Source: Mobula hypostoma
Taxonomy: Eukaryota
Direction: 5' to 3'
Length of the DNA: 64,000 bases
NCBI RefSeq assembly: GCF_963921235.1
Contig: NC_086097.1
Span: 35,776,001-35,840,000 of the forward strand
Positions 4,022 to 60,291 of this stretch are shown one piece after another. Position 1 is the first letter of the stretch, and each line of letters opens with the position of its first letter. Both the position numbers and the translations under genes were made by a program. The notes below the pieces were generated by a model. The model was not told the origin of the DNA. It did no database searches and saw only the letters and a program-made list of their open reading frames with translations.

Positions 4022-4648
4022 TTACTGGCGATTCATTGATTGTTGAGATCGTAAGGTTTCATATACCAGGTCTAGGTCGATGGGTTTGTTAATGGATCCT
4101 TCTGTAAAGAACCACACTTCAAGAAATTCCTGCTCTTCTCTTGTTCTTGCTTGAATCAAGACTCTGGCTGTCATCCAGCTGAAATGGTGTCCTCCTTCAT
4201 CTTCATGAGCTGATACTATTAAGAGTGGGTCATGCCTTTTGCTCCCTAGCTGATGCTTGTGTGGCCTGGTCGATAGTTTTCTTCCTGTTTGACCAATGTA
4301 GCACTTGTCACAGTACTGGATTTTGTAGATAACATTTGTTCTATCAGTCATATTTTGTTGCACTTTGAGCTTTGATAGTTTTCTCCTCAAAGTTGCAGTC
4401 GTTTTGAGAGCAACTGTGATGCGTTGCTGAAACTTTCTTGCTCTCATTTCCGGGACGTTCTTTATGTATGGCAATACAACTTGCTTATTCATAGTTTGTA
4501 TATTCGGGTTTCTAACCTCGAGGCACCTTTGGATGAAGCTTCTTGAATATCTCTTCTGTTGAATGGTCTTGAAGAGGCTGCTTTCTACTTCCAGTTTTGT
4601 GTCTGTAGTGTTGCAATGGGACTCATACCTCTTGAATAAGATCTCCAC
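4022..4648 (-). pseudogene. PLE GIY-YIG endonuclease domain, 5'-truncated
   Basis: VIY..YIG motifs and R..EFLE.WF helix; no Cys-rich linker. Confidence 0.85.
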
Positions 4649-5704
4649 ATAGTTTTGTTTGTGACACTCCAGGTGATTGCTACTGAAGTTCAGAATTTGA
4701 TCGGTGTGTGCTCCTGTTTTGGAAATCTGAGGTCAGGCATGGAAGTATCATGGCCTGCCAAGCAGAGGGGCCAGTCAGTTCTAGACAATGGTCTGGGTGC
4801 AGTCCGTTTTATTGGATCGCTTATTCTGCCAGAGGATGTGGGAGATTTTTCACAGAAACAACTTTGTTACTCCTCTTGTGCTTTCCCCGGTCATGCTTGT
4901 GATGCGGGAAAGACAGCAGCCGGTTTTGGCGCAGTAGGAATCAAGAAATAGCAATGTATTAACGTCCAAATAATTTGTCTCAAAGACACTGTGGATAATT
5001 CCCCCTGCTCCATTAAAGATGGTGCTCGGGATCTTCCATGATCATCTTCCACCACTCAGCTTAACATCACATATAGGGCAGGCTTTTGTGGACAAGACTT
5101 TGGAATAAGGTTTGAAGCAGCATCCCTTCAATTTAAAGCCACCAGCTTAGTCTCATCTGAGACGTAAACCATCCACGATTTAAGAAGATATTGGAACTGC
5201 CTGTGGTTCCAATCAATGACTTCATTCAAATCAGACACATGCATTCCAGTGGGTTCTAGCTTGATGGCTTTCATCACATCAACTAACTTTTACACATCAC
5301 TGTATACCCATAGTTGCTGGCTCTCTGACATTTGATTTGTGTTCATTCTCAAAGGGTAAAAATCAGTAGTACAGAGAGCAACAAAAAAAACAACAAAACT
5401 GCAGTTTGTGATTTAAATTTTACCTCAAGTACACACTCTTTCTTTCTCCCAAAATAAGTCTAATGTGCCCAGTGGAAACTGTAAGATCTTAGACTGACAG
5501 TGACCTGCCCGGTTACTGGCCATTCATTTATACTTTAACAGATGTCTCTGCACAATTGCTCAGCTGTTCACTCTTACAAAGGAGAACAGGCCTAATTCAA
5601 ATTATGGTTCTGTAAGTGTCAACTATTTACCATTGATTGAAGCTCAAGTTAAGGCCAGCATTCTAGGGAACATTCAATAAAATTATTTAAGAAGGGAAGT
5701 AGGC

Positions 5705-7196
5705 AGAAGAAAGAAAATTATAGGCCACTTAGCCCATCAGAGGTTGGGAAGATGTTAGAATCAATTATTAAGGATGAGGTTTTGGGGTACTTGGAGGTGC
5801 ATGATGAAGTAGGCCAAAGTCACCATGGTTTCCGTAAGGGGAAATATTGCCTGAAACCTGTTGGAATTCTTTGAGGAAATAACAGGCAGAATAGACAAAG
5901 AAGAGTCAGTAGATGCTCTTTACTTAAAATTTCAGAAGGCCTTTGACAAGCTGCCGCACATGAAACGGCTTAACAAGATAAGACCCCATTTTATTACAGG
6001 AAAGATACTAGCATGGATAGAAGATTGGCAGGAAGCAAGGAGTGTGATCAAAGGGGGCCTATTGTTGTTGTTGCTGCCTGTGATAAGTGATGTTCCACAG
6101 GGGTCAGTATTGAGACCACTTCTTTTCAAGTCAATGATTTGGATGACAGAATTGATAGCTTTATGGCCAAGTTTGCAGATGCTACAAAAATAGGTGGAGG
6201 GGCAGGTAGTGTTGAGGAAGCAGGGAGTGCGTAGAGGGACTTTGACAGACTGGGAGAATGGACAAAGATATGTCAGATATAATATTGTGAAGGAAAGTAT
6301 GGTCATGCACTTTGGTAGAAGGAAAAAAGGTATAGACTATTTCTAACAGAGAAAATTCAAAAATCAGAGGTGCAAATGGACTTGGGAGTACTTAAGGTTA
6401 ACTTGCAGGTTAAGTCGGTTTAAGAGACTACTAGACAGGTATATGGAGGAATTTAAGGTGGGGGGTTATATGGGAGGCAGGGTTTGAGGGTCAGCACAAC
6501 ATTGTGGGCTGAAGGGCCTGTACTGTGCTGTACTATTCTATGTTTAAGGAAGGCAAATACAAAGTTAGCATTAAATTTGAGAGGAATAGAATACAAGAGC
6601 AAGTATGTGATGCTGAAGCTTTATAAGACTTTGGTCAGATCACACTTGCAGTATTGTGAACAGTTTTGGGCCCTTTATCTTAGAAGAGATATGCCAGCAT
6701 TGGAGAGGGTTTTTGAGGAGGTTCACGAGAATGATTCTGGGAATGAAAGGGTTAATGTATGAGGAGTGTTTGATACCTCTGGGCCAGTATTTGCTTGAGT
6801 TTAGGAGAATGAGGGGGAATCTCACTGAAACTTATTGAAAGGCTTAGGCAGAGTGGATGTGGAAAGAATGTTTCCGATAGTGGTTGAGTCTAGGACCAGA
6901 GGGCACAGCCTCAGAATAGAGGGACATCAATTGAGTACAGACATGAGGAAGAGGTTCTTTAGCCAGTGGGTGTTTAATCTGTGGAATTCACTGCTATGGA
7001 TGGCTGTGGAGGCCAAGTCATTGAGTATACTCAAAGCAGAGATTGATAGGTTCGTTAGTTGAGGCATCACAGGTTACAGGGAGAAGGAAGGAGAATGGGA
7101 TTGAGGGGGATAATAAACCAGCCATGATGGAATTGCAGGGTAGACTTGATCGGCCGAGTGGCCTAATTCTGCTTTTATGTCTCATGGTCTTGTAGT
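5705..7196 (+). mobile_element. CR1 LINE RT region to 3' end, degraded, with a younger CR1 tail nested at about 6419-6544
   Basis: FQKAFDK, VPQGSVL, KFADA, LYKTLVRSHLQYC, TRGHSLRI, FNLWNSL motifs with frameshifts. Confidence 0.9.
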
Positions 7197-12610: not shown

Positions 12611-13181
12611 ATTGGAACTGTTAACTTAGCTGGAACATAATAAGGTGCCTGACTGTGTAAACAAAGTGTGGTAAATCTATGTCTGAGAAATCCAGAAAAA
12701 AGGGCTTTCAAAATTTCCAGTAGGTTCCACTACATGCACATCAACCACTTCTCTCCACAGCCTCTCAGCAGCCTTCATCCAGCCGCCATGCACTGGCACT
12801 TTACACTTACACTCCACACCTCATATCTACACTGACACAGTCACTGTCCTACTGCACTTTCACATGCTGGAGATCTTCTTGCCAAGAGTCACTTTATCAT
12901 TTTCCTGTCAGAGTTATCTAACATTCAGATTCCCCTGCATTGTGTCTTGTCGCATTGCTGTTATATTTAGATTCATTGTGGGTCTTATTTTGATTTTTTT
13001 TTATTGTTCTTTATCCTTATTGTGTTTTTCTTTCCACTTCATCAGATCGGGAGTATCTATCATTTTGTTCTCTTTCACACTTGTACTGAAGAATGACAAT
13101 AACCAAGCTTGAATGTTCAGACAACACATCAAAGTTGCTGGTGAATGCAGCAGGCCAGGCAGCATCTCTAGGAAGAGGTAC

Positions 13182-13217
13182 AGTCGACGTTTCGGGCCGA
13201 GACCCTTCGTCAGGACT
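13182..13217 (-). ncRNA. Minimal type-I hammerhead ribozyme, intact core
   Basis: Reverse complement reads AGUC CUGACGA A GGG UCUCGG CCC GAAA CG UC GACU: stem I AGUC/GACU, stem II GGG/CCC, palindromic ACGU helix III, GUC cleavage triplet. Confidence 0.85.
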
Positions 13218-14401
13218 AACTGAAGGAAGAGCTAGTAAGAGATTTGGAAGCTGGAGGGGGAGGGGGAGATCCAAAATGGTAGGAGAAGACAGGAGGGGGA
13301 GGGATGGAGCCAAGAGCTGGACAGGTGATTGGCAAAGGGGATATGAGAGGATCATGGGACAGGAGGTCCGGGGAGAAAGACAAGGGAGGGGGGGAACCCA
13401 GAGGATGGGCAAGGGGTATAGTCAGAGGGACAGAGGGAGAAAAAGGAGAGTGAGAGAAAGAACGTGTGTATAAAAATAAATAACGGATGGGGTATGAGGG
13501 GGAGGTGGGGCATTAGCAGAAGTTAGAGAAGTTGATGTTCATGCCATCAGGTTGGAGGCTACCCAGACGGAATACAAGGTGTGGCCTTCTATATATTGGC
13601 GAGACCCGAAGCAGACTGGGAGACCGCTTTGCTGTCTCTCTGCTTTCCGCAGGGATCGCTCCTTACGCGACTCCCTTGTCCATTCGTCCCCCCCACCCCT
13701 CTCCACTGATCTCCTTCCTGGCACTTATCCTTGTAAGCGGAACAAATGCTACACATGCCCTTACACCTCCTCCCTCACCACCATTCAGAACCCCAGACAA
13801 TCCTTCCAGGTGAGGCGACACTTCACCTGTGAGTCGGCTGGGGTGATATACTGAGTCCAGTGCTCCCGATGTGGCTTTCTATATATTGGCGAGACCTGAC
13901 GCAGACTGGGAGACCGCTTTGCTGAACATCTACGCTCTGTCCGCCAGAGAAAGCAGGATCTCCCAGTGGCCACACATTTTAATTCCACATCCCATTCTGA
14001 CATGTCTATCCACGGCCTCCTCTACTGTAAAGATGAAGCCACACTCAGGTTGGAGGAACAACACCTTATATTCCATCTGGGTAGCCTCCAACCTGATGGC
14101 ATGAACATCGACTTCTCTAACTTCCGCTAATGCCTCACCTCCCCCTTGTACCCCATCTGTTATTTATTTTTATACACACATTCTTTCTCTCAGTCTGCTT
14201 TTTCTCCCTCTGTCCCTCTGACTATACCCCTTGCCCATCCTCTGGGTTCCCCCCCCTTGTCTTTCTCCCCGGACCACCTGTCCCATGATCCTCTCATATC
14301 CCTTTTGCCTATCACCTGTCCAGCTCTTGGCTCCATCCCTCCCCCTCCTGTTGGATCTCCCCCTCCCACTTTCAAATCTCTTACTAACTCTTCCTTCAGT
14401 T

Positions 14402-14437
14402 AGTCCTGACGAAGGGTCTCGGCCTGAAACGTCAACT
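14402..14437 (+). ncRNA. Minimal type-I hammerhead ribozyme (one stem I mismatch)
   Basis: AGTC CTGACGA AGGGTCTCGGCCT GAAA CGTC AACT. Confidence 0.75.
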
Positions 14438-14535
14438 GTACCTCTTCCTAGAGTTGCTGCCTGGCCTGCTGCGTTCACCAGCAACTTTGATGTGTGTTGC
14501 TTGAACTTCCAGCATCTGCAGAATTCCTGTTGTTC

Positions 14536-14758
14536 GAATGTTCAGAATTAGGGATGGAGCACTCTCTGCAGAGATGAAAGGAATTTTCTTCACCACTTCA
14601 GTAGAAAGTCTTTGGATTTCTCTATCCAAGAGAATTGTGGAGGCTCAGTCAGAGTATATAGAAGACAGCAATCCATAGTTTCTTAGATAATAGTGGAAGC
14701 AAAGAATATATGGTTGGTACAGGAAAGTAGAGCTGAGGTAAAAAAAAACAGCCACAAC
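14536..14758 (+). mobile_element. Old CR1 3' end hosting the PLE and hAT insertions (resumes at 16366-16385)
   Basis: AGAGATGAAAGGAATTTTCTTCAC..GTGGAGGCTCAGTC..CAGCCACAAC|CTTATTGAATG. Confidence 0.7.
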
Positions 14759-22239: not shown

Positions 22240-22434
22240 GAAAGGAAAAATCAAACAAAAACTGCAGATCTAAAACAAAGCTTCAGTTCTGTGAAAGGGT
22301 CTCTAACCTAAAATGTAATGTCTATTTCTCTTCCCACAGAACAATATTTCCAACTTTTTCTATTTTTGCCTGAGGAATGTTGTTTGTTTATCCTTATGGG
22401 TTACAAGTGACTAAGCTAATTGAGCTACATTGAA

Positions 22435-23254
22435 TTTAAAAACGCAAACACGAGGAATCCTGCAGATGCTGGAAGTTCAAGCAACACACATCAAAGTTGC
22501 TGGTGAACGCAGCAGGCCAGGCAGCATCTCTAGGAAGAGGTACAGTCCACGTTTCGGGCCCAGACTCTTCGTCAGGACTAACTGAAAGAAGAGCTAGTAA
22601 GAGCTTTGGAAGTGGTAGGGGGAGGGGGAGATCCAAAATGATTGAGTCAGAGTCAAAATGTGGTTAAAAAGTCGAAGAGCTGAAGAAATACCACACATTT
22701 TAATTCCACGTCCCATTCCCATTCTGATATGTCTATCCACGCCCTCCTCAACTGCAAAGATGAAGCCACACTCAGGTTGGAGGAACAACACCTTATATTC
22801 CGTCTGGGTAGCCTCCAACCTAATGGCATGAACACTGACTTCTCAAACTTCCACTAATGCCCCACCTCCCACTCGTACCCCATCCGTTATTTATTTATAT
22901 ACACATTCTTTTTCTCTCTCTCTCCTTTTTCCTCTCTCTGGCCCTCTCACTATACCCCTTGCCCATCCTCTGGGTTTTCCCCCCCTCCCCCCTCTCCTTC
23001 TCCCTGGGCCTCCTGTCCCATGATCCTCTCATATCCCTTTTGCCAATCAATTGTCCAGCTCTTGGCTCCATCCCTCCTCCTCCTGTCTTCTCCTATCATT
23101 TCGGATCTCCCCCTGCCCCTCCCACTTTCAAATCTCTTACTCGCTCTTTCAGTTAGTCCTGACGAAGGGTCTCAGCCCGAAACTTCGACTGTACCTCTTC
23201 CTAGAGATGCTGCCTGGCCTGCTGCGTTCACCAGCAACTTTGGATGTGTGTTGC
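22435..23254 (-). mobile_element. Fold-back Neptune-type PLE with two opposed hammerheads, 15-bp TSD
   Basis: TTGAGCTACATTGAA at 22420-22434 and 23255-23269; hammerheads at 22544-22579 (minus, cleavage-site C to G) and 23155-23190 (plus). Confidence 0.92.
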
Positions 23255-23559
23255 TTGAGCTACATTGAACCTCATCACCATTCCTCTGGGATCTGTGGAA
23301 ATGAAGCCCAGGAGTAAAAATTTCCCACTTCTGGGGAACTAGGTCATCTGCTTTCCACCTGAGCGGCCTGCAGAGTTAGTTCCCATTGAAGTGCTAAAAA
23401 TGAAATCACATCTTGCTGATGTGAATAACAAGGAAAGCAAAAAAAAAAAAAAAATTAGAGGATGAACATGAAACAGGTGAAGGTTTCCACGGTCACGATC
23501 TCAGAGGGACTAATCCCTCTAGTTGCTAGGTAAACAATTGTAATGTAGCTTGTAAATCC

Positions 23560-26144: not shown

Positions 26145-27260
26145 TGGCAGACTCTATCAAGTTTCTACAGATGTGCCATGGAGAGCATGCTAACCTGTTG
26201 CATCACCCCTTGGAATGGCGGCTGAAATGCACAGGATCGAAAGAGGCTATAGAGGGTTCAGCTACATCACAGGCACAACCCTATCCACCATTGACAACAT
26301 TTTCGAAGGCAGTGCTTCGAGAAGTCTGCATCCATCATTAAGGACCCTCACCATGCAGGGCAAGCCCCCTTCTCATTACTAACGTCAGAGGAGAGATACG
26401 GGATCCTGAAGACATAGAAACATAGAAAACAGGTGCAGGAGTAGGCCATTCAGCCCTTCGAGCCTGCACTGCCATTCAGTACGATCATGGCTGATCATCC
26501 AACTCAGAACCCTGTACCAGCCTTCTCTCCAAACCCCCTGATCCCTTTAGCCACAAGGGCCATATCTAACTCCCTCTTAAATATAGCCAATGAACTGGCC
26601 TCAACTGTTTCCTGTGGCACAGAATTCCACAGATTCACCACTCTCTGTGTGAAGAAGTTTTTCCTAATCTCGGTCCTAAAAGGCTTCCCCTTTATCCTCA
26701 AACTGTGACCCCTCGTTCTGGACTTGCCCAACATCGGGAACAATCTTCCTGCATCTAGCCTGTCCAATCCCTTTAGGATTTCATATGTTTCAATAAGATC
26801 CCCCCTCAATCTTCTAAATTCCAACGAGTATAAGCCCAGTCGATCCAGTCTTTCATCATATGAAAGTCCTGCCATCCCAGGAATCAATCTGGTGAACCTT
26901 CTTTGTACTCCCTCTATGGCAAAGATGTCTTTCCTCAGATTAGGGGACCAAAGCTGCACACAATACTCCAGGTGTGGTCTCACCAAGGTCTTGTACAACT
27001 GCAGTAGTACTTCCCTGCTCCTGTACTCAAATCCTCTTACTATGAATGCTATGAAAGACACACACTCAAAGCTTTAGGAACAGCTTTACACCTTCACCAT
27101 CGGATTTCTGAACTGCCCATGAACCCATGAACCCAACCTCACTATTTCTCTTTGCATTATTTACTTATTTTATTGCAACTTATGGTAGTATTTTTCATCC
27201 TGCACTGTACTGCTGCCACAAGACAACAAATTTCACAGCATATAATAAATCTGATTCTAA
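26145..27260 (+). mobile_element. Rex1/Babar-like 3' fragment split by a CR1 insertion
   Basis: TCCATCATTAAGGACCCTCACC..CTGAAGACA|CACACTCAA..GATTCT tail. Confidence 0.75.
26415..27054 (-). mobile_element. Young 5'-truncated CR1 with an open ORF2 C-terminus
   Basis: Uninterrupted ORF 26504-27061 (LYKTLVRPHLEYCVQLWSP..TRGHSL..FFTQRVVNLWNS); (TTCTATGT)n tail; AAGACA repeat at 26409-26414 and 27055-27060. Confidence 0.95.
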
Positions 27261-27280
27261 GATATTGAAAATCAAATTAG

Positions 27281-27566
27281 GGGTGTCACGGTAGCATAGT
27301 GGTTAGCACAACACTTCACAGTACCTGCAACCTGGGTTCAATTCCCATCGCTGCCTGTAAGGGGTTTGTATGATCTCCCCATGAACTCATGGGTTTCCTC
27401 CGGGTGCTCCAGTGTCCTCCCACAGTCCAAAGACATACCAGTTGGTAGGTTACTTGATCATTGTAAATTGTGTTTAGGCTAGGATTAAATTAGGGGATTG
27501 CTGGTGTATCGTGGCTCAAAGGGCCGGAAGGGTCTAATCTGCACCGTATCCCAATAAATAAATAAA
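27281..27566 (+). mobile_element. HE1-like V-SINE (tRNA head, V domain, CR1-like tail)
   Basis: A box TAGCATAGTGG, B box GGTTCAATTCC, GGGTTTCCTCCGGGTGCTCC..CCTCCCACAGTCCAAAGAC, (TAAA)n tail. Confidence 0.85.
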
Positions 27567-28034
27567 CCTGATTCTGAATTCAATTAGAGTACAAGTCCTC
27601 TCCAGCATTACAAATGGCCAACTTACAGAAATCCTGCACATACAAATGAGTGTTAGGGAGACTGGCAGGACTGTTGGAGGTGGATTTCCAGGGACTGTGG
27701 AACCTTGCAGCAGGAGTGCATATGCCTGTGTGGCTAGGCATAGCTCAAGTACCATCTATAAATTTGCTGACGATACAACCATTGTTGGTAGAATCTCAGG
27801 AGGTGACGAGAGGGCATACAGGAGTGAGATATGCCAACTAGTGGAATGGTGCCACAGCAACAACCAGGCACTCAACGTCAGTAAGACAAAAGAGCTGATT
27901 GTGGACTTCAGGAAGGGTAAGACGAAGGAACACATACCAATCCTCATAGCGGGATCAGAAGTGGAGAGAGTGAGCAGCTTCAAGTTTCTGGGTGTCAAGA
28001 TCTTTGAGGATCTAACCTGGTCCCAACTTATTGA

Positions 28035-28205
28035 GGCAACATACATCAAAGTTGCTGGTGAACTTCAGTTAGTCCTGACGAAGGGTCTCGGCCTGAAACG
28101 TCGACTGCACCTCTTCCTATAGATGCTGCCTGGCCTGCTGCATTCACCAGCAACTTTGATGTATGTTGCTTGAATTTCCAGCATCTGCAGAATTCCTGTT
28201 GTTTG
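28035..28205 (+). mobile_element. 171-bp fold-back mini-PLE with hammerhead, 13-bp TSD
   Basis: CCCAACTTATTGA at 28022-28034 and 28206-28218; 27-bp perfect inverted repeat 28036-28062 / 28143-28169. Confidence 0.95.
28071..28106 (+). ncRNA. Minimal type-I hammerhead ribozyme, intact core
   Basis: AGTC CTGACGA AGG GTCTCGG CCT GAAA CG TC GACT. Confidence 0.85.
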
Positions 28206-29197
28206 CCCAACTTATTGATGCAGCTATAAAGAAGGCAAGACAGCGGCTATACTTTATTAGGAGTTTGAGGAGATTTGGTATTTCAAGAAATACACTCAAA
28301 AACTTCTATAGCTGTACTGTGGAAAGCATTCTGACAGGCTGCATCACTGTCTGGTATGGCAGGGGGAGGTGGGGGCTACTGCACAGGGCTGAAAGAAACA
28401 GCAGAGAGTTGTAAATTTAGTCGGCTCCATCTTGGATACTAGCCTACAAAGTACCCAGGACATCTTCAAGGAGCGGTGTCTCAGAAAGGCAGCGTCCATT
28501 ATTAAGGACCTCCAGCACCCAGGGCATGCCCTTTTCTCACTGTTACCATCAGGTAGGAGGTACAGAAGCCTGATAATAAACTTGATTCTGATTCTGATTC
28601 TGAGAGAACAAGGCAAATCTGAGTGCCTTGTCTCTGTAGACCCAAACCACGACCTCCAGGCCTTGACAATTGAGAGCAGGCTCAGGCCAAACAGAGTTGG
28701 GATTTCTGTGCAGACTCACTCACTGAGTCAGTGAGGCTGGTCAGTGGCCATTCTTCCTGTGTCTGCTCGCACTCCCATCACAGCTGTTTTTGTGAAACTC
28801 CCTCACACGTTTTTGTTCATTTCTTACTGACAAACAGTTTTGAGTTACCAACAGCTTTCAGAAACAGACTGCTGCTATATGCTGGGGACTGGCTGTAATT
28901 ATCTTTGGAGGATGATAGCATTCAGCATTAAAGGTACATAGATATCTCAGGGCTTTATGTTTGGAGGAGATTACAGACAATTGAGAGAGCAGTGAGAGAT
29001 TTGTAAATGCGAATGGGAATTTTAAAGTGCCTTACCAGATTTAGCACAAATCTACCTTGATTTTCTCTTTGACTTACAATAGAATGATCTTTTCAATGTT
29101 GAATCAATTGTACCCATTAAACAAAATATATTTTACAAGGGTGCAACATTCTGATACCATAGATGTTAAAATTAAATGCAGGTCTCATCTAAAATTA

Positions 29198-29423
29198 AAA
29201 ACACACAAGAGATTCACAGATACAGGAAATTCAAGGCAACACACACGAAATGCTGGATGAACTCAACAGGTCAGGTTGCATCGATGGAAATGAATGAAAA
29301 GTCGATGTTTTTGTCTGAGACCCTTCTTTACGACTAAAAGGAAGGGGAAGATGTCAGAAGAAAAAGGTGGGGGAGAGGAAGGACGACAAGCTAGAAGGTG
29401 ATAGGTGAAGCCAGGTGGGTTGG
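29198..29423 (-). mobile_element. Solo PLE terminal repeat, decayed hammerhead near 29300-29335
   Basis: AGTCGATGTTTTTGTCTGAGACCCTTCTTACGACT; ATCTAAAAT on both flanks. Confidence 0.75.
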
Positions 29424-29967
29424 ATCTAAAATAAAAATTAAAATTAAAATCTAAAATTAAAGCTGAAAGAACAAATTTATCTCCTCATTGCTCCTTCAGT
29501 ATTTTCCAAAATCAGCACTCAGCTTTATCTATAAATCTAAGACTTGTTCATCTTCAGAATTTCTTTTTTTTTGCAGCAAAGGAATCGCATAGACTTCAAG
29601 AGGAAAAATTGTAGATTCATAAGGGAAAGAAAAGAGGTCAGTGGACAAATTGGATCATTTCACTGAGTGCTGACATAATCACATCCAATCAAACCGTCTC
29701 ATTTGCTGTTGCAGCATTCAATGATTGTAAATAAATCTCTTGAAAAACACATTTAATATTTTTAATTCATGTATCAAAATGACATGATTTTTCTACTTCA
29801 ATTTTGTAATAGTCAGAGATCAATGAATCAATGGTTTTACTTTGATCTATATTTTATAGAAAGCTAGTTGCTACTCCTGTATGTATTTCAAAGCCCTCAG
29901 TGAGGAAGAAAACATTTCTGAACTATTTTAATATCTAACTTCTCAAATTAAGGTTTACCCTTGTAAG

Positions 29968-32289: not shown

Positions 32290-32965
32290 TGTCATCAGAG
32301 CATTTGCTAGCTCTGGGCCTGAACTTGCTAGAGTTTAAAAGAATGGGAACGTTGCTCATTGAAACCTACTGAATATCAAAAGGCCTAGAAAGAGTGAACT
32401 TGGAGATGATGTTTCCAATAGCGGGAGAGTCTAGGACCAGAGGGCACAGGCTCAGAATACAAGGACGTCCCTTTAGAACAGGGGTGGAAAGTTCAAGGGG
32501 GATATTAGAGGAAAGTTTTTTACTCAGAGAGTGGTTGGTGCGTGGAATACACTGCCTGAGTCAGACACACTAGTGAAATTTAAGAGACTACTAGACAGGT
32601 ATATGGAGGAATTTAAGTTAGGGGATTATATGGGAGGCAGGGTTTGAGGGTCGGCACAACAATGTGGGCTGAAGGGCCTGTACTGTGCTGTACTATTCTA
32701 TGTTCTAACAGAGATGAGAAGGAATTTCTTTAGCCAGAGGGCAGTGAAACTGTGGAATTCATTACTACAGATGGCTGTGGAGGCCAAGTCATTGGTTATA
32801 TTTAAAGTGGAGATCGGTAGATCCTTGACTAGTAAAGACATCAAATGTTACAGGGAGAGGGCATGAGAGGTTGAAAGGGGTAATAAACCAGCTATGATCA
32901 AATGGCAGAGCACTTTCGATGGACTGAATAGCCTAATTCTGCTCCTGTGTCCTATGGTCTTATAG
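32290..32965 (+). mobile_element. CR1 3' end with a younger CR1 3' end nested at 32482-32706
   Basis: Host CTTTAGAACAG|AGATGAG split; AACAG duplicated at 32477-32481 and 32707-32711. Confidence 0.85.
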
Positions 32966-42972: not shown

Positions 42973-43302
42973 TTTCAGCTGGGTGAACTGGAGCAGTGTG
43001 GGCTTAAGTGCCTTTGCTCAAAGACACAACACACTGCTTTGGTTGAGGGTTCGAGTCTCGGCCGAGGCAGTGTGTTGTGTCTTTGAGCAAGGCACTTAAC
43101 CGCACACTGCTCCAGTCCACCCAGCTGAAAATGGGTACCGGCGAAATGCTGGGCGTTAACCTCACGATAGACTGGCGTCCTATCCTGGGGGTGGGGGTGG
43201 GGGCGGGGGGGAGTCTCATACTCTCAGTCGCTTCACGCTACAGAAACCGGCACAAGCACTGGCCTGACGGGCCACAAGGCTCGGGACAGATTTTAACTTT
43301 TT
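42973..43302 (+). mobile_element. tRNA-derived SINE with an inverted duplication replacing its 5' head
   Basis: B box GGTTCGAGTC, TGTGTCTTTGAGCAAGGCACTTAACC core; inverted arms 42973-43047 / 43057-43130. Confidence 0.85.
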
Positions 43303-43555
43303 TAACATGTTAAATAAGACAAGGCAACTACAATTGCATCTCCAGGTGAAGTCCCTGATCATCAGCTATCTGCTTGGTGGTTAATGTGAAAGCTTCTGTC
43401 CAATACCATTCAGTTTGCCAAAAATAAGCTTACAGGGGCAGTTCCCTCAGTAGCAAATATTAGGATGGGACTCATAGGGTTTCATAGCACTGTAATAAGC
43501 ACAAAAAATTTGTGAAGGTCAAAGGACGAGGTAGTCCACAGATAGAAATATTACA

Positions 43556-43695
43556 AACGTGAGAAAATCTGCAGATGCTGGAAATCCAAGGCAACACACA
43601 CAAGATGCTGGAGAAACTCAGCAGATCAGGTAGCATCTATGGAAATTAATAAACAGTTGACGTTTCAGACCGAGAACCTTCCTCGGGACTTCATT
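43556..43695 (-). mobile_element. 140-bp solo mini-PLE beginning at the hammerhead, 9-bp TSD
   Basis: AATATTACA at 43547-43555 and 43696-43704; hammerhead remnant near 43655-43690. Confidence 0.85.
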
Positions 43696-44210
43696 AATAT
43701 TACATGGCTAAGATCCCACTGAAAAAAAGTTTCAGCATTTGACCATCAGACAGTAAGTGACAGATACCCCACACTATTAATCTTTGAATTGCATTGGTGT
43801 TTAATAAGATCTGACGACCTCACATCATATATACTCTAAAGCCTCTTTCTTAATTGATTGGATATCCCAATTGCCTTTGAAAATAAAATGTTGAAATGGC
43901 AACACTACAGGAAATGCAATGAGTGGATTCCAATTCCACTGTAGAGGAGTGAACCACATCTCCAAAAGACCTTGATTTTGAGAGTAGTGCAGCCACTGCA
44001 ATGAGTTACAGACATTGGTCCTGCAGTGATTAGAATGTGCCCCTTCACCCCAGGAAGTCTGACTGGAGAAGGTTTTTAGTGCTACCATTTTTGCTAAATG
44101 TCTTTACGTACATGGTGCCATGCCTCTTTTTGTAGGATTTCTTCTGGCTCCTCTGGCTCTCTTAAACCACTTGGGATCATGGTGACTGGGATCCAAGTTA
44201 GAATTAATCT

Positions 44211-45416
44211 TCGCAATTCCTCCATCTCTGCCACATCTGCTCTCAGGATGAGGCTTTTCATTCCAGGATGAAGGAGATGTCTTCCTTTTTTAAAGAAAGG
44301 GGCTTCCCTTCCTCCACCATCAACTCTGCTCTCAAATGCATCATATTCATGCACATCTGCTCTCACCCCATCCTCCCGCCACCCCACTAGGGATAGGGTT
44401 CCCCTTGTCCTCACCTACCACCCCACCAGCCTCCGGGTCAAACATATAATTCTCTGTATCTTCTGCCACCTCCAACGGGATCCCACCACCAAGCACATCT
44501 TTCCCTCCCCCCCTCTTTCTGCTTTCCACAGGGATCGCTCCCTACACGACTCCCTTGTCCATTCATCCCCCCCATCCCTTCCCACTGATCTCCCTCCCAG
44601 CACTTATCCTTGTAAGCGGAACAAGTGCTACACATGCCCTTACACTTCCTCCCTCACCACCATTCAGGGCCCCAGACAGTCCTTCCAGGTGAGGCGACAC
44701 TTCAGCTGTGAGTCGGCTGGGGTGATATACTGCATCCGGTGCTCCCGATGTGGCCTTCTATATATTGGCGAGACCCGACGCAGACTAGGAGACCGCTTTG
44801 CTGAACACCTACGCTCTGTCCGCCAGAGAAAGCAGGATCTCCCAGTGGCCACACATTTTAATTCCACGTCCCATTCCCATTCTGATATGTCTATCCACGG
44901 TCTCCTCTACTGTCAAGATGAAGTCACACTCAGGTTGGAGGAACAACACCTTATATTCCATCTGGGTAGCCTCCAACCTGATGGCATGAACACTGACTTC
45001 TCTAACTTCCGTTAATACCCCTCCTCCCCTTCACACCCCATCTATTATTTGTTTATTATTATGTATTTTTTTCCCCTTTCTTTTTCTCTCTCTTTTTTCT
45101 CCCTCTGTCCCTTTCACTATAACTCCTTGCCTGCTCTCCATCTTCCTCTGGTGCTCCTCTCCTCCCATCCCATGATCCTCTCCCTTCTCCAGCCTTGTAT
45201 CCCTTTTGCTAATCAACTGTCCAGCTCTTAGCTCCATCCCTCCTCTTCCTGTCTTCTCCTATCATTTCAGATCTCCCCCCTCCCACTTTCAAATCTCTTA
45301 CTATCTCTTCTTTCAGTTAGTCCTGACAAAGGGTCTCAGCCCGAAACGTCGACTGTACCTCTTCCTATAGATGCTGCCTGACCTGCTGCGTTCACCTGTA
45401 TTTTGTGTGGGTTGCT
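44211..45416 (+). mobile_element. Neptune-type PLE 3' part: RT thumb, Cys linker, open GIY-YIG frame, terminal repeat
   Basis: ORF 44689-45015 GVIYCIRCSRCGLLYIGETRRRLGDRFAEH..RLEEQHLI..L.PDGMN; hammerhead 45319-45354 (core G to A); ATTAATCT at 44203-44210 and 45417-45424. Confidence 0.92.
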
Positions 45417-45936
45417 ATTAATCTGCTTTTGGTTGTTTTATATTGAATTGTTTAACCTTTTCACAATAACAACAAATGAGATATCTCAGTACCTTTATAT
45501 CAAGAGTGTGTTGACATGACAGGCAATTAAAAAATCAACATTCAACAATTATAAAGAATAAGGAATTTTATAAAACATAAAGTTAGAGGTTAAGTTTCAG
45601 ATATGGAATAAAATGTGCATAGAAACAAAAACTAGCATGTATTTACAATGTAAACAACATTGCAAAAAGTGGTTTAAAGTGTTTACAGTGCAGTACAATG
45701 ACTGGGGTGTATGTAGAGAGGGATGGGGGGGGGGGTAACCAGAATAGTTGATCAGATTAACTGCCTCGGGAAAGAAACTTATAAAATGGCATGAAGTTCT
45801 TATTTTAATAGCCCTACAGTGTGTAAACATTCAATAACTTTAAAAGCTGCTATTCTAGGAGATATGATTGTGCATCACTGGGAGCACATAATCATTCCCA
45901 CAAGGGTTCACCAGAAACACATTCTGGGTGATACAC

Positions 45937-46145
45937 ACACAAAATGCTGGAGCAACTTAGCAGGTCCAACAGCAACTATGGAGACGAATAAAGAGCCAAC
46001 TTTTCAGGTCCCGATGAAGGGTCTCAGCCCTAAATATCAATTCTTTATTCCTCTCCATAGATACAGTCTGAGTTCCTCCAAAATTTTCTCTGTGTGTGTA
46101 CTCTGGATTTCCAGCTTCTGTGGAATTTCTTGCATTTATGATTTA
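45937..46145. mobile_element. Fold-back mini-PLE, decayed
   Basis: TSD CTGGGTGWTACAC at 45924-45936 and 46146-46158; CCGATGAAGGGTCTCAGCCC. Confidence 0.75.
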
Positions 46146-47054
46146 CTGGGTGTTACACTAGTATTGACATCATTGGGTTGAGCCACACACTAGAAAAACA
46201 GTAACGGAACTGATGAAAATTTCCTACTAAAGTGTTTATACCCCATTAATAAGTGGTTTTCAATCTCTCAAATCCATGTGCAGAATTGGTTATCATCAGT
46301 TTAATATGATTACTGTTCTTATATATTGTCTTTTCTGGTGTCCCACAACAAAATTTCTCTGCCACTTCCTAGAGGTCCAATTATTTATGATATCTGATTC
46401 AGCATTGTAAATATTATTACATCTGGAAGTGTTCCAAGATAATAGATCAAAACATACAGAAGAAGTGATTTAGTTAGTAAACGGACAGACATAAAAGTCT
46501 TAAATTATAGGGAATGCTGAGTGCACAAATAACCTATGAATTAATCCTCAATGTCTATCTGAGAAATGGGGTCTGAAAGTATTCAATTGTTGGCTCTTGA
46601 AGCCCTCACTGCATCATCAACTTTGTGCAACTAATGTGTTTTCTCTGCTGGATCATTTAGATCAGCAAACTGTTGCAAGCAGGAGAAGCAGTCAATAACT
46701 TCTGCTCACTGCACTTTATATAATCATAAAAAAAAATCAGCTTGAAGAAATGTTTTCCATCTTGCAGCCCATTTTCCCATATTCTCTGCATTAAAGTAGC
46801 TATCACTTGTATACCCATTCATGTTTGGACATAATTTTTTGTTGTATTAGTAGAGAGCAGTGCAATTAGAACTAACTGTCTAAACTGCTGACAGCATCAA
46901 AGTGAGATTGACATGTTCATATCTCTCAAGGCTCCTGAAATAGATTGTGTTCCATCATTAGAGATTCCAAGTTTTAAAACAAAGATTCCATAAGTTCTGT
47001 TAACTCCATTAGAGTCAAAGGTCGGATCACAATATTCAAACCCAACTTTCTTTC

Positions 47055-58062: not shown

Positions 58063-58432
58063 CAGAAGATCAAAAGGCTGCTGGATCAGATACTAAGGGG
58101 CTGGTAAATAAGTTTGAGACACAGCTTTATCCGTGATCTTACTGTGAAGTGAAGCAAATTCAACATAGTTGCTCTATTTCTTAAATCCGAGGAACTCATG
58201 GAACGGCCTTAGTCCAGACTCATGGGACTTCTGACTGAAATCCTCATTCTGAACAATTTTAGATAAATGTGCAAACTTCAGTTGTGAGAATTATTAAGAT
58301 CCTAAACCCTCATTCTAAAAGGGAAATGTCGGCTGATTTTCTGAATAATCATACTGGTTGCTGGAATAAGTGCTTGAGGAAAGGGAATTTACTGGTTTTG
58401 ACACAAAAAGCAGTAACGTGGAGCTAGGCATT

Positions 58433-60291
58433 ACACACAAAATGCTGGAGGAGTTCAGCCTGCCAGGCAGCGTCTATGGAAAAAAAGTACAGTCGACATT
58501 TTGGGCCGAGACCCTTTGGCAGGAGAAAAAAAGGTGAGGAGTAGATTTAAAAGGTGAGGGGAGAGAGAAACACAAGGTGATAGGTGAAACTGGGAGGGGG
58601 AGGGATGAAGTAAAGAGCTGAGAAGTTGATTGGTGAAAGAGATACAGGGCTGAAGGGGGGAGTCTGATACAAGAGGACAGAAGGCCATGGAAGAAAGAAA
58701 AGGTGGGGAGGCGCACCAGAGGGAGGCGATTGGCAGGCAAGGAGATAAGGTGAGAGAGGGAAAAGGGGATGGGGAATGGTTAAGCGGGGGGCCATTACCA
58801 GAAGCTGGAGAAATCGATGTTCATGCCATCAGGTTGAAGGCTAGCCAGAGGGAATATAAGGAGTAGTTCCTCCAATCTGAGTGTGGCCTCACCACAACAG
58901 TAGAGGAGGCTATGGATTGACTTATTGGAATGGGAATGGGAAGTGGAATTAAAATGGGTGGCCACTGGGAGATCCCGCTTTATCTGGTGGATGGAGCGTA
59001 AGTGCTTGTGACGTGGTCTCCCAATTTATGTTGGGTCTCACTGATATACAGGAGGCCACAACTGGAGTACCAGCCCCAGTATGACCCCAACTCAAAGGTG
59101 AAGTGTCACTTCACCTGGAAGGTCTGTTTGGGGCCCTGAATGGTAGTGAGGGAGCAGGTGGAGGTGCAGTTGTAGCATTTGTTCCGCTTGCAAAGATAAG
59201 TGCCAGGAGGGAAGATGTGCTTGGTGGTGGGATCCCGTTGGGGATGGCGTGTTCCAGAGGGTTATGTGCTTCTCATGGAGGCTGGTGGGGTGGTAGGTGA
59301 GGACAGGAGGAACCCTATCCGTGGTAAGGTTGCTGGAGGATGGGGTGAGAACAGACGTGCGTGATATGGAAGAGATGCAGTTGAATGCAGTGTCGATGGT
59401 GGAGGAAGGGAAGCCCCTTTCTTTGAAAAAGGAGGACATCTCCTTCGTTCTGAAATGAAGTCTCATCCTGAGAGCAGATGCGGCAGAAATGGAGGAATTG
59501 AGAGAAGGGAATGGCATTTTTACAAGTAACAGGGTGTGAGGAGGTATATTCCAGGTAACTGTGAGAGTCTGTGGGTTTATAAGACTTCAGTAGATAAGCT
59601 GTCTCCAGAGATAGAGACAGAGAGATCGAGAAAAGTGAGGGAGGTGTCGGAAATGGACCAGATAAATTTGAGGGCAGGGTGTAAGTTGGAGGCAAAGTTG
59701 ATGAAGTCGCTGATCTCCGCATGGATGCAGGAAGTAGTACCAATGCAGTTGTCAATGTCGTGCAGGAAAAGTAGGGGAGTGACACCAGTATAGGCTTGGA
59801 ACATGGACTGTTCTACATAGCCAACATAAAGGCAGGCATAGCTGGGACCCATGTGAGTGCCCATGGCTACACCTTTTGTTTGAAGGAAGTGGGAGGAGCC
59901 AAAGGAGAAATTATCAAGAGTGAGGACACATTCCACTAGATGGAGGAGAGTGGAGGTGGAGGGGAATTGGTTGGGTCTGGTGTCCAGAAAGAAACGGAGA
60001 GCTTTGAGACCTTCCTGGTTGGGGATGGAAATGTATAGGGACTGGACATCCATAGTGAAAATAAGGTGATGGGGGCAGGGAACCTGAAATTATTGAAAAG
60101 ATCCAGAGCGTGTGAAGTTTCACGGATGTAGGTAGGAAGGGAATGAACTCGGGGGGGACAAAACAGAGTCGAGGTATGCAGACATGAGTTCAGTGGGGCA
60201 GGAGGGTCTACCTGGACAAGCGGGTTTGTGGATCTTGGGTAAGGGGTAGAAGTGGGAGGTGCAGGGTGCGGGAACTATGAGGTTGGTGGCA
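58433..60291 (-). mobile_element. Neptune-type PLE with RT core, linker, GIY-YIG and terminal repeat; 15-bp TSD
   Basis: FYPLPKIHKP, MDVQSLYISIP, QTKGVAMGT..GPSYACL, HDIDN (decayed YIDD), YKPTDSHSYL; GTGGAGYTAGGCATT at 58418-58432 and 60292-60306. Confidence 0.93.
59577..60053 (-). pseudogene. PLE reverse transcriptase core with inactivated catalytic motif
   Basis: D..SLY, G.AMG motifs; YIDD read as DIDN. Confidence 0.9.

Follow-up and report, generated by a model that had tools for sequence, protein, structure and literature searches.

A 171-bp fold-back insertion in Mobula hypostoma, most likely the truncated 3' end of a Penelope-like element joined to an inverted copy

Within a 64,000-nt stretch of contig NC_086097.1 of Mobula hypostoma (positions 35,776,001 to 35,840,000 of the forward strand; hereafter the window), a 171-bp insertion interrupts an older LINE fragment. 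The insertion is very probably the truncated 3' end of an endonuclease-bearing (EN+) Penelope-like element (PLE) together with an inverted copy, a dead and one-off product of an integration event primed from both strands. It is thus most likely an ordinary PLE insertion following a known and published pattern, and not a representative of a new mobile class.

Structure of the insertion and its target

The insertion is bounded by a direct repeat of 13 bp whose copies are identical at 13/13 positions, and its two arms are complementary at 27/27 positions, so that the coordinates, the 13-bp target site duplication (TSD) and the perfect 27-bp inverted repeat reported in a first-pass annotation were borne out. 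The locus comprises the following features:

27722-28573, plus strand: older LINE fragment that the insertion splits (C-terminal part of the reverse transcriptase, RT, and region of PF09004)
28022-28034, plus strand: left copy of the 13-bp TSD, host LINE sequence, found once in paralogous LINEs
28035, plus strand: extra G, matching neither the TSD nor the PLE template by sequence comparison
28036-28062, minus strand: inverted, tail-less, 5'-truncated PLE copy of 27 bp, from alignment to sibling copies
28063-28205, plus strand: 5'-truncated forward copy, corresponding to the final 143 bp of the PLE (91.5-95% identity to the 3' ends of four young siblings)
28143-28169, plus strand: stretch of the forward copy to which the left arm is complementary (27/27)
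28170-28205, plus strand: one-sided PLE tail of 36 nt, ending at the common 3' end of the family
28206-28218, plus strand: right copy of the TSD, the first C of which can also be read as the next base of the element

No other 27-bp perfect inverted pair within 300 bp occurs in the window, and none occurred in 30 Markov controls. The arms are also the source of the fold z-score of the insertion (-6.1), since the 80-nt loop alone has a z-score of +1.3. In terms of its composition, the insertion consists of the last 143 bp of a very abundant PLE and a 27-bp inverted, tail-less copy of the same end, arranged head-to-head. The forward part was compared with four young sibling 3' ends, and many older segments in the window match it as well. 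If C28063 is counted, the inverted arm is 28 bp long, as the siblings have G at the equivalent of 28142; the overlap between the two copies at their junction is accordingly 0-1 nt, and a small palindrome, TGAA-C-TTCA, lies across the boundary between arm and forward copy. The arms do not enclose everything: the first-pass annotation rightly placed a hammerhead between them, but the element as a whole extends beyond, with the 36-nt tail outside the right arm and the single extra G before the left one. G28035 may be an untemplated base, a mispaired base or a later mutation.

This layout bears on whether the insertion could be a MITE-like DNA element with the arms as its terminal inverted repeats. 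In MITEs, both ends carry terminal inverted repeats, and the TSD is fixed and characteristic of the superfamily. The insertion is short and non-coding and has a perfect inverted repeat and a TSD, as such an element would, but its arms are not terminal, its whole sequence is that of a PLE 3' end, and the TSDs of its young relatives vary in length (11, 13 and 15 bp); we give this reading next to no credence.

The interrupted LINE, which may be of the Rex1/Babar type, was described by the first-pass annotation as an RT-bearing frame split by the insertion with duplication of the target. This description agrees with the data. Pfam gave a weak RVT_1 match on the left flank (E 0.002) and a PF09004 match on the right (E 4e-8), and the left and right parts of the LINE frame share the same register where codons are duplicated. 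As two paralogous LINE copies in the window contain the 13-mer once, the 13-bp repeat is a true TSD. Three contigs skip the insert (two in run X12 and one in run X15), and these are indistinguishable from paralogous LINEs. A PDB search with the RT fragment gave no relevant match.

Two further repeats were recorded in the window. At 42973-43130 there is an imperfect palindrome of 158 bp that is 85% self-complementary and, according to our searches, not PLE-derived, and a 126-bp repeat pair (6419-6544 and 32579-32704; 96% identity) is younger than most repeats of the window.

Related insertions and the parent element

The window contains four other two-armed insertions, as well as a longer copy of the family:

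13111-14546, no strand assigned: insertion A, 1414 bp with an 11-bp TSD, a tail-less inverted arm of ~460 bp and a forward piece that has the tail and extends into the endonuclease region
22420-23269, no strand assigned: insertion B, 820 bp with a 15-bp TSD, a short tail-bearing piece on the minus strand and a longer tail-less piece of ~570 bp on the plus strand
45924-46158, no strand assigned: older mini fold-back of 209 bp, TSD 12/13, arm ~65 bp, different junction
716-940, no strand assigned: older, decayed mini fold-back of 207 bp, candidate TSD 8/9, the least certain of the five
44272-45015, plus strand: longer copy of the family in which an open GIY-YIG frame, with a CX4CxxC motif upstream, precedes the same hammerhead-bearing 3' end by ~300 bp

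The five two-armed insertions thus range in size (171, 207, 209, 820 and 1414 bp) and have five different junctions, and the TSD is 13 bp in the 171-bp insertion, 11 bp in A and 15 bp in B. In A and B, one piece carries a tail of 35-36 nt, with 10 further nt before the TSD in B, and the tail-less arms of both end at the tail boundary, no more than 1 nt from where the 27-bp arm ends. PLEs typically carry an adjacent inverted 5'-truncated copy and a tail of 30-40 bp at one end (Craig et al. 2021, PMC8557442); the same layout has been described with TSDs of 8-10 bp (Arkhipova et al. 2013, PMC3846280) and is repeated in a curation guide (PMC8969392). The 171-bp insertion likewise has an inverted 5'-truncated copy, a 36-nt tail at one end and a TSD that varies in length among its relatives. 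Since the 820- and 1414-bp siblings share layout and tail boundary with it, including a TSD, an inverted arm and a one-sided tail, and the PLE papers call this layout typical, the data support the first of the two origins considered in the first-pass annotation, in which PLE insertion yielded an extremely truncated product.

The closest described counterparts are Pen2a_Av and Pen2_Av of Adineta vaga, which also consist of head-to-head truncated copies with a one-sided tail of 30-40 bp and a variable TSD (PMC3846280). PLE insertions in Adineta vaga further resemble the present one in having a hammerhead in the terminal repeat and in an insertion into a non-LTR element. Compared with these, the insertion studied here is far shorter and without an ORF, its inverted copy measures 27 bp, and it belongs to a probably Neptune-type family in a cartilaginous fish.

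The parent family is represented in the window by 23 merged PLE-derived segments, which cover ~13% of its bases. Because the 3' end of the insertion is shared with sequence lying behind a GIY-YIG frame (44272-45015; Pfam match, E 1e-4), we regard the insertion as the 3' end of an endonuclease-bearing PLE. Another copy, at 58420-60100, reaches an RT-like frame, with an RVT_1 match (E 0.0025) that is below the curated cut-off. Searches found 14 longer relatives, including cartilaginous-fish proteins at 54-77% identity, and RT and GIY-YIG were present together in one of the three relatives scanned (P0006). A CX2-5CxxC motif preceding GIY-YIG has been defined for Neptune and Nematis (PMC8557442), and the translation of 44272-45015 has CX4CxxC in this place, which points to one of these two types; the family is probably a Neptune-type EN+ PLE. 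Among the papers listed in literature searches for this PLE family and for fold-back PLE minis, none mentions a fold-back. The segments 43554-43690 and 44200-45416 were not counted as one insertion, as no TSD joining them was found. Additionally, on the minus strand at 4022-4732, an open frame of 236 codons looks by eye like the endonuclease end of another PLE family, unrelated to the first; it had no Pfam match at E 0.001.

Hammerhead motif

The forward copy contains one ribozyme-like motif:

28070-28107, plus strand: minimal type I hammerhead, a descriptor match (definition from PMC4209133)

Helix I is formed by 28070-74 and 28103-07, followed by the box CUGACGA (28075-81), an unpaired A (28082), helix II (28083-86 and 28091-94, with a G·U at its base) and the box GAAA (28095-98), while helix III is a loopless palindrome and the predicted cut falls after C28102. 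The descriptor matched twice in the window (28075-28102 and 13186-13213) and never in 100 Markov controls, and within the insertion the motif is present once. The elements defining a minimal hammerhead are found here, namely the CUGANGA and GAAA boxes, a UH site, helices I and II and palindromic positions 15.2-16.2. Where a conserved G10.1-C11.1 pair is expected, there is instead a wobble, G28083·T28094; four of five sibling segments have C, and T28094 is probably the result of CpG decay. The first-pass annotation had called the hammerhead intact, which is correct for the catalytic boxes but not for the whole, given the loopless, dimer-type helix III and the G·U at the conserved pair. Rfam returned no match at gathering score in the window, and the six sub-threshold matches obtained at E up to 10 for 27900-28350 included no hammerhead. 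A microRNA reading was rejected, as the best match, mir-2763 (27 of 50 bits), reflects the long stem only.

Minimal hammerheads with a loopless helix III are described as dimer-dependent (Cervera and De la Pena 2014, PMC4209133); the same source reports that a tested Schistosoma monomer was inactive and that most such motifs occur singly, which it ascribes to truncated PLEs. The motif in the insertion resembles these hammerheads of metazoan PLEs in its core boxes, 5-bp helix I, unpaired nucleotide, loopless palindromic helix III and single occurrence, and differs from them in a helix II of 4 bp instead of 7-8 bp and in the G·U at G10.1-C11.1 (PMC4209133); it is a putative ribozyme. The hammerhead is here a passenger of the PLE 3' end, and since the copy spans the predicted cut site, the template was uncleaved there.

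These features also speak to whether the insertion could be a non-LTR retrozyme monomer giving rise to a self-cleaved circular RNA. Retrozymes of this kind consist of head-to-tail repeats with at least two hammerheads, from which circles are released (PMC7229834; bioRxiv 10.64898/2026.07.22.740005). The insertion shares with them its shortness, the lack of coding sequence, a type I hammerhead, the relation to PLEs and a long TSD; its type I boxes and TSD and a size near 150-450 bp fit the class (PMC7229834), which has been proposed to derive from PLE pLTRs (bioRxiv 10.64898/2026.07.22.740005). Unlike retrozymes, it is a single inverted unit with a single minimal motif: there is no tandem head-to-tail array in 27000-29500, the one hammerhead is of the loopless kind for which a tested Schistosoma monomer was inactive, the pair probability of its helix I in the predicted transcript is 0.03-0.08, and the order of the sequence follows that of the PLE 3' end and not that of a permuted circle. 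We consider this origin extremely improbable. The retrozyme/MITE-like class that the first-pass annotation had offered as its second option is therefore not supported, given the single hammerhead, the missing tandem array, the non-terminal arms, the varying TSD and the five different junctions in the window.

Immediately upstream of helix I (14370-14400, the equivalents in copies B and C, and 28063-28068), copies of the family show a motif resembling a branch point, together with a pyrimidine tract and CAG. By its sequence, this stretch at the 5' edge of the hammerhead is a candidate 3' splice site, of a kind that has been noted for Drosophila virilis Penelope (PMC4209133).

Recurrence of the junction, route of integration and meaning

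Alternatively, the 171-bp unit could belong to a non-autonomous family of fold-back elements whose full-length transcripts are inserted anew in trans by the RT/GIY-YIG protein of the PLE; its junction would then be expected to recur. The unit does retain the tail and the RT start region, which are likely cis signals; pLTRs are enough for trans mobilisation in Adineta (PMC3846280), and Chlamydomonas has derivatives of PLEs that are non-autonomous (PMC8557442). In the window, however, the junction 23-mer has one match at up to three mismatches, against 23 PLE-derived segments, all five two-armed insertions have different junctions, and the arm stops at the tail boundary, like those of insertions made de novo.

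Sequencing contigs were examined for four of 24 listed runs (X1, X5, X12 and X15, the last carrying the organism label of X1), and the junction evidence drawn from them rests on the best 15 of 892 joints and the best 24 of 2800 loose ends. Among the loose ends listed, those at 28063 continue into ordinary upstream PLE sequence (at least 61 in X1, 34 in X5 and 12 in X15), which counts against the family reading. Those behind 28206 have unlike flanks (at least 124 in X1, 129 in X5 and 19 in X15), and this position is therefore the common 3' end of the family. None of the contig pieces listed spans the insertion. The summed depth of the bin 28014-28060 is 15-fold below that of the next bin and stems mostly from the LINE, although at 403,000 in X1 it is too coarse a measure to weigh against some thousands of copies. 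In most bins of the unique flanks there is no contig cover in X15, a presumed RNA run, which is uninformative on transcription. A metagenome scan with the junction 23-mer gave no matches and is likewise uninformative, as the arm 20-mer gave five matches that do not extend into PLE sequence and are thus due to chance; viral contigs gave no matches. Taken together, we judge membership of such a family to be very unlikely.

The starts of the PLE pieces weigh in the other direction. In all three mini fold-backs the hammerhead-bearing piece begins 7-12 nt before the core box, so truncation was not random, and repeated junctions could arise through a hotspot or through propagation. Random truncation alone is insufficient to account for these starts, which weighs against the one-off reading. 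Counting all short PLE pieces, six start within about 15 nt upstream of the core box (28063, ~46002, 820-823, 25289, 43690 and 41549), a cluster that includes all three minis and that could be inflated for old copies by BLAST truncation in the pyrimidine-rich upstream sequence.

A second line of evidence concerns the variant carried by the arms. Both have A at 28163 and at its mirror position (the GTATG variant), where four of five sibling segments have G and the fifth, the arm of A, has a 2-nt deletion. When contig depth is summed at 28163, bases other than G account for 22% in X1 (3,329,512 G of 4,273,818), 15% in X15, 3.4% in X5 and 6.5% in X12; such sums favour the reference and do not represent copy numbers. 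From this contrast between organisms, A at 28163 looks like a subfamily marker and not a private change, and an origin of both arms in the same source subfamily is supported. The first-pass annotation was right that the variant is present in both arms; its further claim that both came from one template is unsupported, because the variant is common among copies of the matching organism.

Our preferred reading, priming on both strands, can be set out as a sequence of steps. The endonuclease would nick the two target strands 13 nt apart. One 3' end would prime at a distal start site on the RNA, so that the tail is included and 143 nt are copied, and the other at a proximal site 36 nt upstream, from which 27-28 nt are copied. 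Both copies would stop early, the two cDNA ends would be joined with an overlap of 0-1 nt, and gap filling would create the TSD. We infer nicking, two-site priming, joining and fill-in by analogy with the protein of Poseidon of Anolis carolinensis (PAc), which in vitro cuts and extends both strands and for which hammerhead cleavage is dispensable (Frangieh et al. 2024, PMC11167929). In that system RT begins at two internal sites whose spacing equals the tail (PMC11167929). The likeness to our insertion thus includes a tail sized by two RT start sites, two-strand extension that would yield two arms and an uncleaved RNA template; the differences are that PAc belongs to the Poseidon clade and showed no difference in start site between the strands, both of which count against the analogy, and that the joining of two cDNAs lies outside the findings reported for it.

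At the tail-less ends of the three young insertions, the adjoining target sequence agrees with the initial 7 nt of the tail at 4/7, 5/7 and 6/7 positions (28029-28035, 13115-13121 and 23255-23261; window background 0.10, 0.015 and 0.002, respectively), a post hoc comparison with n = 3 in which the 4/7 count includes the extra base. PAc priming, in contrast, is described as non-homologous to the target. The matches may represent pairing between primer and RNA at the proximal start site, or a preference of the endonuclease.

The arm could also have been made in a single event by self-priming, with the first cDNA or an antisense template folding back so that both arms come from one molecule. This competes with two-strand priming over mechanism only, as its verdict on the insertion overlaps with ours. 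Identical arms sharing a variant are equally expected of fold-back or of a single template, which counts against the preferred mechanism, and the TGAA-C-TTCA palindrome lies at the junction, where Arkhipova et al. 2013 (PMC3846280) read palindromes in this way. Against self-priming, the junction overlap is just 0-1 nt, the variant is a common subfamily state, and the arrest of all three young arms at the tail boundary is left unexplained. For B it is impossible, since the tail-less piece (571 bp) is longer than the tail-bearing one (196 bp) and so cannot have been copied by fold-back from the cDNA with the tail. The halves of A and B differ at 26/439 and 13/162 sites, and by a hand calculation 27 consecutive matches would be found at such divergence with p ~0.2. 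We therefore hold self-priming to be unlikely, while rating it above the other alternatives. With regard to other joints, a 55-bp internal piece of A is duplicated at its junction (13580-13634 and 13870-13924; 95% identical, ~4 nt overlap), which suggests a template jump, and the two pieces of B are separated by ~48 nt of filler (22643-22690).

Recurrence of the junction at numerous loci would establish a non-autonomous class of fold-back PLEs distinct from tandem retrozymes. There is a small chance that the insertion is the founder or a member of such a self-propagating family, with an RNA forming a 28-bp closed hairpin that carries the hammerhead and the RT start signals. If so, the family would be a vertebrate fold-back equivalent of SINEs for Penelope elements, moved in trans, and might give rise to hairpin small RNAs directed against the parent PLE. 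As a one-off product of two-strand priming, the insertion matters little in itself, being one more dead PLE end where ~13% of the window is PLE-derived. What it offers is a clean observation on the PLE integration reaction, combining a fixed arm end, a one-sided tail, a TSD, an overlap of 0-1 nt and an uncleaved hammerhead.
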